From: a virus
Taxonomy: Duplodnaviria > Heunggongvirae > Uroviricota > Caudoviricetes
Direction: 5' to 3' (one strand)
IMG/VR virus record: IMGVR_UViG_2718218139_000003
Length of the DNA: 37,100 nt
Positions within the stretch are counted from its first letter, which is position 1. Each line of letters begins with the position of its first letter. The position numbers were made by a program, and so were the translations under genes. The notes under the pieces are model-generated. The model was not told the origin of the DNA. It was given only the letters and a program-made list of their open reading frames with translations, and ran no database searches. Below are positions 4,751-10,342 of the stretch, piece after piece.

Positions 4751-5212
4751 GTGTTCTGGTCGTTGCAGGCCGAAGACAGCGATGCCAACAGCCTCAACAA
4801 CAAAGAAATCACGACCATTATTCGTCGCAACGGGTTCCGCTTCTGGGGCAACCGCACACCGGAAACGAACGCCTACATCTTTGAGGTGTATACCCGAACC
4901 GCACAGGTGCTGGCTGATTCAATTGCGGAAGCGCAGTTTGAAACCATCGACAGTCCACTGACACCTGCGAACGTGAAGGATGTTATCAGCGCCATCAGGG
5001 CAAAACTGGATTCGCTGGTTACTGCCGGGAAACTGATTGGTGCGGAGTGCTGGTATGACGTGGTGGATAACGGCACCACGAATTTACGTCAGGGACGTGT
5101 GCGTATTCGCTACAAATATACGCCTGTTCCCCCGCTGGAAGACATGGAACTTTACCAGACGTTTACTGATGAATTCTTTGGTCCCGCATTTGCGGTGCTG
5201 GGAGGTGCCTGA
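4751..5212 (+). pseudogene. FI: Tail sheath protein (P2 gpFI-like), C-terminal about 153 codons only; 5' part replaced by the IS600 end
   Basis: Frame is open right from the IS boundary; followed by FII/E/T/U in P2 order. Confidence 0.7.
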
Positions 5213-5724
5213 TGGCTGTACCAAAACATCTTCGCTTTTTTACGTTGTTTGTGGATGGTGAAAACGAAGTGGGTAAAGTGACATCCGTCACGCCGCCCAA
5301 ACTGACGCGCAAAACCGACAGCTATCGTGGTGGTGGCATGATGGGGGCGGTAAGTATTGATCTCGGTCTGGACGACTCCGCGCTTGATGCGAGTTTTGTC
5401 ATGGGGGGAGCTGTTCGTGCGCTGTTCCTTAAATATGGCGGCACGATTGACGGCACGCTGCTGCGTTTTGCGGGTGAATACTACACCGATGCAGAAAGCG
5501 ATCTGTATGAAATCGAGATGCGCGGGCGTGTGACGGAAATTGATATGGGGGAAGCCAAACAGGGCGAAGCCACATCACACACTTACGCTGTCAAAAACAC
5601 CTACTACAAGCTGAGCGTTAACGATCGCCCGCTGTGGGAAATCGACCTGTTGAACCACATCTACCGGAAGGACGGCAAGGACATTGTGCCTGACCGTATC
5701 CGTTCCGCACTTGGGCTTGGCTGA
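5212..5724 (+). CDS. FII: Tail tube protein (P2 gpFII-like)
   Basis: 170 aa; conserved PPKLTRKTDSYRGGGM and RFAGEY tube motifs; synteny. Confidence 0.8.
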   Translation: MAVPKHLRFFTLFVDGENEVGKVTSVTPPKLTRKTDSYRGGGMMGAVSIDLGLDDSALDASFVMGGAVRALFLKYGGTIDGTLLRFAGEYYTDAESDLYEIEMRGRVTEIDMGEAKQGEATSHTYAVKNTYYKLSVNDRPLWEIDLLNHIYRKDGKDIVPDRIRSALGLG

Positions 5725-5779
5725 TAAGTAATATGCAGGCGGCGCAGTGCGTCGCCTCTGACTGAAAAGGAGACAACTG

Positions 5780-6154
5780 ATGAAAGACATCGATACTGAA
5801 ACCCGGAATAACACCGTGGCGGATGATGTGACGGCAGGTGAGGATATGGCTGTCGAACGTGGCGTAAAACTGACCCGACCAATTGAGCATGGTGGCGAAA
5901 AAATCACGTATGTGGAGATCACCGGGGCTATTGAGCAGGCTGGATCCCTGCGTGGTCTGTCGCTGTCTGATGTGCTGAATCTGAAAGCGGATACCATGTT
6001 TACGCTGTTGCCTCGCGTGACCTCGCCACGACTGGATGAAGTGATGATTAAAAAAATGTCGTCACGCGATTTTATTCAGTTGTGCGCTGTGGCTGTAAAT
6101 TTTATGAGCGAGCCAGACTCTGGCGCGAAGAGCGTGCAGGAGACGGCAGCGTAA
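5780..6154 (+). CDS. E: Tail assembly chaperone (P2 gpE-like)
   Basis: Position between tube and tape measure; overlapping -1 frame ORF downstream. Confidence 0.65.
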   Translation: MKDIDTETRNNTVADDVTAGEDMAVERGVKLTRPIEHGGEKITYVEITGAIEQAGSLRGLSLSDVLNLKADTMFTLLPRVTSPRLDEVMIKKMSSRDFIQLCAVAVNFMSEPDSGAKSVQETAA

Positions 6155-6318
6155 TCACCCTGGTGTGCTTTGAGCACATCGAAGATCTGGTGGCGGATAT
6201 TGCCGCCATTTTTAACTGGTCGCCCGCCGAAATCTTCATGATGACGCCCGGCGAAGTGGTTAGCTGGCGCGAGCGGGCGGCACTTCGCAGCGGGAATGCA
6301 GATAATGAAGACTCTTGA
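6082..6318 (+). CDS. E' frame: -1 frameshift extension of the tail chaperone; candidate slippery heptamer A AAT TTT at 6097-6103
   Basis: ORF in the -1 frame overlapping the 3' end of E and running to the start of T; X XXY YYZ heptamer in E frame. Confidence 0.5.
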   Translation: MRCGCKFYERARLWREERAGDGSVITLVCFEHIEDLVADIAAIFNWSPAEIFMMTPGEVVSWRERAALRSGNADNEDS

Positions 6319-9112: not shown

Positions 9113-9118
9113 GGAGTC

Positions 9119-9613
9119 ATGGCCATGATGATGATCTATGGCATGTTTGTTTTTGAGCTGCGCACACTGCCGCATCAGCAGTTACAGCAAAACAAAAGCT
9201 GGCGGCATGTGAAAAATGAACGCGTTAACCGTTCAGCAAGCTGGCAGTATATCGGTGCAGGTGATGATCGCATCGTTCTTTCTGGTGTGCTTTATCCTGA
9301 AATTACAGGTGGCGAAGTGTCGCTGTCGCTGCTGACCACGCAGGCGTATACAGGACGACCCTGGCCTTTGATTGATGGCGTCGGGCAGATTTACGGCATG
9401 TATGTCCTGACCGGAACGAATACGACCCGTTCCGAGTTTGATCGCTACGGTAAGGCGAAAAAGATAGAATTTTCACTGACTCTTGAACGCTGTGATGAGG
9501 ATTTGCGGGAGCGCCTGCAATCCTCATCGTTCAGCGATATGTTGTCCGGCTTCAAAGATAAGGTGACATCATCCCTTAATAGCGCGACCAGCTCAGTTAA
9601 GGGGCTGCTCTGA
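9119..9613 (+). CDS. U: Tail protein (P2 gpU-like)
   Basis: 164 aa, directly downstream of the tape measure. Confidence 0.7.
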   Translation: MAMMMIYGMFVFELRTLPHQQLQQNKSWRHVKNERVNRSASWQYIGAGDDRIVLSGVLYPEITGGEVSLSLLTTQAYTGRPWPLIDGVGQIYGMYVLTGTNTTRSEFDRYGKAKKIEFSLTLERCDEDLRERLQSSSFSDMLSGFKDKVTSSLNSATSSVKGLL

Positions 9614-9769
9614 TTTAACGTATGTCGCCAATTTCCTGATGAAGGTGACTGGCGACTTGCTGTTGTATGTCCTTCTCAGAAAATTGTTTTTGAATAACAA
9701 ACAACAGGATTTTATAATCTCTTAACCTTATAATATGTGTGGTCTGAAATAATAATTAAGGAGATTATC

Positions 9770-10342
9770 GTGCTGTCTTACTTAATGGCAATTCACTTTG
9801 TTTTATTTGGGAACTCTACTAATTTAAAAAACTTCTGGAAATATGAAGTAATTCGGCGGAAACGTATGGATATCTGGAGGCTTTTAAGAGAGAAAAAACA
9901 GCGTAACCGGAATTTCCTTTTCTGGTGGCGGTTGGCTAACGAAATGTATATTAATGGTAATAAATTACATAAGAAAGCAGCCAAAAAGTTAAACAGTAAA
10001 ATAATTAACAAATTTGGTTGTGAAATTGGATTGGGCGCAAATATTGGAAAAGGGTTAACAATTCCCCATCATGCTGGAATTGTTGTTCATTTTGCTGTTG
10101 ATGCTGGTGAAAATCTGGTGTTACGACAGAATACTACCATTGGACAGATAGATGGTGACATGCCTGGTTCAAGAGTAAAAATTGGTAGTAACGTTGATAT
10201 CGGAGCTAATTGTTGCATCATTGGATTATCACGTAAAATTGGGGATAATGTAAAAATAGGTGCAATGTCTTTTATAAATAAAGATATACCATCGAACTGC
10301 ACATATATAACTAAAAAGAGCGGTGTTGTATTGTATAAATAG
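9770..10342 (+). CDS. Hexapeptide-repeat acetyltransferase (CysE/WcaB/NodL-like left-handed beta-helix), AT-rich cargo gene
   Basis: Strong RBS taaggag 7 bp before GTG 9770; [LIV]-G-x-x-x-x-I hexapeptide repeats (IGANIGKGLTI, IGSNVDIGANCCIIG, IGDNVKIGAMSFI); markedly lower GC than flanking phage genes. Confidence 0.7.
   Translation: MLSYLMAIHFVLFGNSTNLKNFWKYEVIRRKRMDIWRLLREKKQRNRNFLFWWRLANEMYINGNKLHKKAAKKLNSKIINKFGCEIGLGANIGKGLTIPHHAGIVVHFAVDAGENLVLRQNTTIGQIDGDMPGSRVKIGSNVDIGANCCIIGLSRKIGDNVKIGAMSFINKDIPSNCTYITKKSGVVLYK

Follow-up and report, generated by a model that had tools for sequence, protein, structure and literature searches.

An IS600-damaged, P88-like prophage of Escherichia coli with its tail block in the native orientation

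The 37 100-nucleotide stretch of DNA analysed here (IMG/VR virus record IMGVR_UViG_2718218139_000003; hereafter the window) carries, from approximately position 2044 to its right-hand end, a P2-family prophage of Escherichia coli in which the tail genes FI to U lie on the strand opposite to genes V to G. We assign a probability of roughly 0.9 to the interpretation that this element is a fixed, decaying P88-like prophage located at flk/pdxB, with FI–U in their native orientation and with damage caused by the insertion sequence (IS) IS600 that includes the loss of 2364 bp. The element resembles the type phage P88 genome-wide in nucleotide sequence and is collinear with it, which places it in the genus Xuanwuvirus (Peduoviridae); its closest relatives are P88, P884B11, the Citrobacter phage Shae_phiSM and a number of E. 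coli phages obtained by induction, and not P2 or 186. Both aspects are already known, as a described genus shows this architecture and the damage amounts to the usual IS-driven prophage erosion in an IS600-rich lineage of enterohaemorrhagic E. coli (EHEC), with no new mechanism involved.

Orientation of the tail block in P88-like phages

The initial annotation placed the 3′ remnant of FI (FI′) through U on the plus strand and G with its upstream genes on the minus strand, a layout that open reading frames (ORFs) and Pfam matches bear out, as they do the start of FI′ at an IS and the end of U beside an acetyltransferase gene. The tail-fibre assembly gene, H, I, J, W, V, S, R, the lysis genes and the head genes are all on the minus strand. 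The genes of the tail block and those facing it are as follows.

4751–5212, plus strand: FI′, the 3′ 39% of the tail-sheath gene (residues 242–394 of a 394-amino-acid protein; Pfam Phage_sheath_1C; 100% identity to these residues of P884B11 FI by tblastn), lacking a start codon or promoter of its own
5212–5724, plus strand: FII, tail tube, full length (Phage_tube, E = 2e-45; 170/170 amino acids identical to P884B11 FII, 100%)
5780–6154, plus strand: E, full length (99% identity to the P884B11 protein, on which its assignment rests, the Phage_TAC_7 match being below threshold)
6163–6318, plus strand: E′, full length (Phage_P2_GpE, E = 1e-12); E and E′ form the tail assembly chaperone pair, described as overlapping
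6305–9112, plus strand: T, tape-measure protein, full length at 935 amino acids (PhageMin_Tail; 98.8% identical to P884B11 T over 935/935 amino acids)
9119–9613, plus strand: U, tail gene, full length (Phage_P2_GpU, E = 1.5e-38)
9737/9770–10342, plus strand: hexapeptide acetyltransferase ORF, following the U stop codon at 9613
10386–10964, minus strand: tail-fibre assembly gene

Thus, of the P2-type tail operon (FI, FII, E, E′, T, U and D), five genes are full length, FI is truncated and D is absent.

In P2 (NC_001895), as the initial annotation had correctly stated, V-W-J-I-H-G and FI-FII-E-E′-T-U-D-ogr lie on a single strand, and it was by this standard that the tail block of the window had been called inverted. 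The dot-plot-type comparison with intact relatives that had been proposed as a check, carried out here with blastn, refutes this: the supposedly inverted block is the native arrangement of intact close relatives, which is the very finding that the initial annotation had named as refuting its reading. Window positions 3107–37100 are collinear on a single strand with both P88 and P884B11, with 89–98% nucleotide identity over most matched segments, and the P88-like prophage of E. coli O26:H11 strain 11368 is collinear over 4751–21989 at 97.1% identity. The FI–U genes have the same orientation relative to the baseplate block in six distinct phage genomes, and this relative orientation is found in Shae_phiSM, 503458, 520873, PhiR44_2 and 500465-2. 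In the annotated order of intact relatives, V W J I H G on one strand are followed by an invertible fibre segment and a DNA invertase, then by U T E′ E FII FI on the opposite strand and by D, ogr and hok on the first strand; D and ogr are therefore upstream of FI and on the opposite strand, rather than downstream of U. Of 5426 complete E. coli genomes, 1113 contain a contiguous segment in which D and ogr diverge from FI, i.e. P88-like phages occur in about a fifth of them. The window displays the Xuanwuvirus layout, with FI–U opposite V–G and hok in the expected place and orientation, but its D/ogr part has been deleted. A literature search for the genome architecture of P88 or Xuanwuvirus returned nothing relevant.

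As read from these alignments, FI–U are natively convergent with V–G in Xuanwuvirus and D/ogr are divergent from FI, so that the strand switch at U/G is normal architecture. The inversion relative to P2 is only an old, genus-level difference and not a lesion of this prophage. P2 carries homologues of Q P O N M L X, the lysis genes, R S V W J I H G, FI FII E E′ T U, A, int, C and cox, and its D and ogr are the counterparts of the genes missing here, yet its FI-U-D-ogr genes form one rightward operon collinear with V–G, whereas in the P88 group FI–U are inverted with respect to both V–G and D-ogr. To take P2 as the standard for every P2-like prophage hence leads to a false inversion call, and P2 is the wrong template for P88-like ones.

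IS600 damage and loss of function

The absence of D, ogr and the 5′ part of FI from the window, also noted initially, was confirmed, with FI codons 1–241 gone. It had been thought that the history of the region needs at least one inversion plus deletions; a single 2364-bp deletion, lying flush with one of two IS600 copies, is sufficient and is the sole local lesion. The features at this site are listed below, with positions in the relative used as reference given for the E. coli prophage locus L005.

3230–3367, minus strand: hok/gef-family gene, the last phage gene kept to the left of the deletion (tblastn E = 1.5e-12; annotated HOK_GEF in sister assemblies)
3486 (L005 12843): left breakpoint, 72 bp past the ogr stop codon
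3487–4750, minus strand: IS600 copy 1, 1264 bp (Pfam HTH_Tnp_1 and rve)
3530–4348, minus strand: orfB of IS600 copy 1
4384–4686, minus strand: orfA of IS600 copy 1
4751 (L005 15208): right breakpoint at FI codon 242, the base directly after IS600, where FI′ begins
28269–29532, plus strand: IS600 copy 2, inverted relative to copy 1

Both breakpoints are exact to the base, and the missing segment comprises ogr, D, the 158-bp D/FI intergenic region, which would be expected to hold divergent late promoters, and FI codons 1–241. The two IS copies are 100% identical over 1264 bp and match at 99–100% records annotated in RefSeq as 'IS3-like element IS600 family transposase'. Copy 2 is a simple insertion with the 3-bp target duplication of IS600 (GTG on both sides, with the reference coordinates overlapping by 3 bp) and splits the replication gene A at codon 705/706. 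Copy 1 has no target-site duplication (left flank ATT, right flank GTG), as expected if the deletion came after the insertion. By the most likely route, an IS600 insertion immediately downstream of ogr would have been followed by a deletion adjacent to the IS, reaching rightwards from its end at 4750; two IS600 copies in the same orientation could have recombined to give an identical product. For IS3-family elements in EHEC, adjacent deletions have been documented whose size varies between a few nucleotides and > 40 kb (PMC9943667). The window resembles those of IS629 and IS600 in that the IS abuts the deletion flush with one end and without a target duplication, and in that a nested, larger deletion exists in a sister strain; it differs in that the published cases are tied to IEE and iee is reported to be disrupted in O145:H25, the mechanism and timing proposed here being putative.

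Two considerations weigh against this account. The order of events (insertion with adjacent deletion, as opposed to two insertions with recombination) is not readable from the end product. Moreover, the published adjacent-deletion mechanism is linked to IEE (PMC9943667) and iee is disrupted by IS600 in O145:H25 (PMC5567499), so that the deletion either predates that disruption or arose otherwise.

When the window was searched by tblastn with D and Ogr from P88, P884B11 and an E. coli prophage, the best E-value was 0.37, and P2 and P88-type Ogr and D gave a best E-value of 0.077 against all of its six-frame segments with phmmer --max. Together with a regular-expression scan for C4 zinc fingers, these searches rule out that diverged copies of D or ogr are hidden in the window, an eventuality that the initial annotation had allowed for. 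The sole zinc-ribbon or C4 proteins encoded are Com (2780–2977) and a ClpX-type zinc-finger protein (25811–26143), and the window thus contains no gene for an Ogr/Delta-family late activator. With regard to D in the relatives, the gene is 1101–1110 bp in P88 and P884B11, but in several E. coli prophages RefSeq lists a 'VgrG/Pvc8 family' gene of approximately 800 bp plus a small pseudogene (L005 13219–14072; L006 2768–3615); the shorter annotation may reflect a frameshift or a difference in start-site annotation. With regard to activator sites, the pattern TTTTGTTGT-N12-AGAAC(A/G)G is shared by the P/O intergenic region of the window (21428–21448) and the D/FI intergenic regions of P88 and P884B11 (33175–33333 in the P88 locus L003), and resembles the TGT-N12 spacing of annotated P2 activator sites. 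It is a possible Ogr site, though a weak hint only: the pattern TTGT-N12-AGAAC has 11 matches in the window against 7.6 expected, which is not statistically discriminating.

The same configuration occurs in other assemblies. Positions 1–10822 of the window are 100% identical in GCA_013416625.1 and GCA_003015325.1, which were found via an exact-protein match to the truncated host protein YfcJ, and the configuration is 99.945% identical in CP014670.1, i.e. EHEC O145:H25 strain CFSAN004177, from a lineage with > 50 IS600 copies (PMC5567499). None of the complete RefSeq E. coli genomes contains both IS600 junctions, and an exact-match scan of genome contigs for the IS/FI′ junction gave 0 matches. 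In the sister assembly GCA_003015365.1, the same left flank, hok-IS600 junction and IS600 are present but the IS end is joined straight to window position 36470 in the 3′ part of int (locus L009, 13487–15381), a further 31.7-kb deletion from the same IS end having removed the rest of the prophage. The IS600 end at 4750 thus appears to generate nested adjacent deletions.

A third lesion affects the tail-fibre gene H (10964–13101, minus strand), a pseudogene in which a 5-bp tandem duplication (ATGAC) near 12487 causes a frameshift, as judged by alignment to the intact 2133-bp gene of O26:H11 11368; relative to P884B11 H, the frame also switches at residue ~204–206. The initial annotation had considered late-gene activation and tail assembly to be probably non-functional, which the gene content supports as very probable. 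The prophage can probably neither replicate, nor activate late promoters, nor assemble a tail, because Ogr and D are absent, the sheath gene is truncated and promoterless, H is frameshifted and A is interrupted. The morphogenesis genes other than the damaged ones are full length and encode proteins with 95–100% amino acid identity to those of P884B11 or P88, which indicates that the decay is recent.

Alternative explanations

A recent inversion of FI–U within a P2-type late region, possibly mediated by IS elements and accompanied by separate deletions of D, ogr and the 5′ part of FI, would agree with the single-strand order G / FI-FII-E-E′-T-U-D-ogr of P2 itself, and the two inverted IS600 copies in the window could in principle mediate such an event. 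We nevertheless hold it to be extremely improbable. The orientation found here is that of the intact relatives, which makes a recent inversion superfluous, and collinearity of the window with them extends through the two IS copies. Copy 2 is still flanked by its GTG target duplication, from which it follows that it has not recombined with copy 1; as, in addition, the sequences on either side of each copy align collinearly with the relatives, an inversion between the two was rejected. The U-acetyltransferase junction is found in 181 E. coli genomes at up to 99.5% identity with an intact FI upstream. An assembly artefact, in which two IS600 copies flanking ogr, D and the 5′ part of FI were collapsed into one, deserves consideration inasmuch as 100% identical IS copies commonly break or collapse short-read assemblies and many short contigs of the locus (L012 among them) end inside the IS. 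This too carries a probability of only a few per cent at most, since at least three independent assemblies show both of these junctions, on contigs of 0.5 to 5.2 Mb that include a finished chromosome, and in none of them was D, ogr or FI 5′ sequence seen at this place; for practical purposes this recurrence rules an artefact out.

The full-length state of FII, E, E′, T, U and all head, lysis and baseplate genes, 95–100% identical to those of functional phages, would also be compatible with a remnant that is kept and used by the host, either with FII-E-T-U serving as tailocin-like parts or with complementation by another P2-like prophage. High identity with no accumulated substitutions is, however, a sign of recent inactivation and not of selection, the sheath is truncated, the D/FI promoter region deleted, H frameshifted and A interrupted, and the loss of the whole block in the sister strain speaks against selection for retention; we therefore consider host use very unlikely, and retain the interpretation of a decaying prophage with native FI–U. 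A bolder and doubtful proposal within that interpretation, for which the odds are rather low, would make the IS600 end at 4750 a one-ended deletion generator of unusual activity despite the disrupted iee, having removed 2.4 kb here and 31.7 kb more in the sister strain. If this were true, it would imply that adjacent deletions by IS3-family elements can arise by a route independent of IEE, and that this route drives the fixation and erosion of prophages in O145:H25.

Fibre module, cargo and host flank

The segment between U and H (9620–12350) has no collinear match to P88 or P884B11 and contains the acetyltransferase gene (plus strand, 9770–10342), the tail-fibre assembly gene (minus strand, 10386–10964) and the distal part of H. 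This module occupies the site of the DNA invertase and invertible fibre segment of P88-type phages, and no DNA invertase was found in the window. Including its junction with U, it recurs in 181 complete E. coli genomes, O26:H11 11368 among them, with identities of up to 99.5%, and is a circulating variant that forms no part of the damage. Positions 11930–12321 within H match P88 (L003 26468–26859, 88% identity) in an orientation opposite to all other matches and correspond to the alternative, flipped arm of the P88 invertible segment. From this alignment, the fibre appears to have been frozen in the flipped state with loss of the invertase, a module of lambdoid-type fibre tip, assembly gene and acetyltransferase having become attached.

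P88, P884B11 and Shae_phiSM share with the window the gene order and orientation of the whole prophage, with hok, parM/parR and the ClpX-type zinc-finger protein common to all. The window differs from them in lacking ogr, D and FI codons 1–241, in having two additional IS600 copies, in the replacement of the invertase and invertible segment by the above module, in the frameshifted H and in a C repressor only 48% identical to that of P884B11. The O26:H11 str. 11368 prophage (NC_013361, 2.386–2.409 Mb), in addition to being collinear and 97.1% identical over 4751–21989, has the same U-acetyltransferase-tfa-H module; it differs in its full-length FI, its intact H and a D-family sequence upstream of FI that is annotated as a shorter gene of 795 bp, and it lies at another chromosomal site with other cargo (hxsABC).

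The remaining features of the window, from left to right, are as follows.

1–822: yfcJ, host gene for an MFS transporter, with an in-frame 357-bp internal deletion relative to E. coli VTB97432v
819–1814, minus strand: flk, host gene
2044–2835, minus strand: DNA methyltransferase gene (N6_N4_Mtase)
2780–2977, minus strand: Mu Com-like zinc-ribbon gene, overlapping the methyltransferase gene
24323–24886, minus strand: ORF without a Pfam family
25407–25814, minus strand: ORF without a Pfam family
35661–35999, plus strand: C-type repressor gene (HTH)
36096–37097: integrase gene int, reaching the window edge, 99.7% identical to that of P884B11

Host DNA makes up the leftmost 1.8 kb of the window, and pdxB adjoins the integrase gene in a sister assembly, which places the prophage between flk and pdxB. 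The deletion in yfcJ removes 119 codons, with its junction near 665, and leaves a 273-amino-acid product; exactly the same protein is encoded on at least 24 contigs of public assemblies. The com/methylase pair near the attachment site is prophage cargo and is annotated as such a pair in relatives. Two further segments (24290–24910 and 25329–26151) have no or only a partial match to P88 and P884B11, and the two ORFs without a Pfam family that they contain represent variable cargo between the portal gene and parR. The 48% identity of the C repressor to its P884B11 counterpart is unlike that of the adjacent int and cox (96.8% identical to P884B11 cox), which suggests a different immunity type acquired by module exchange.

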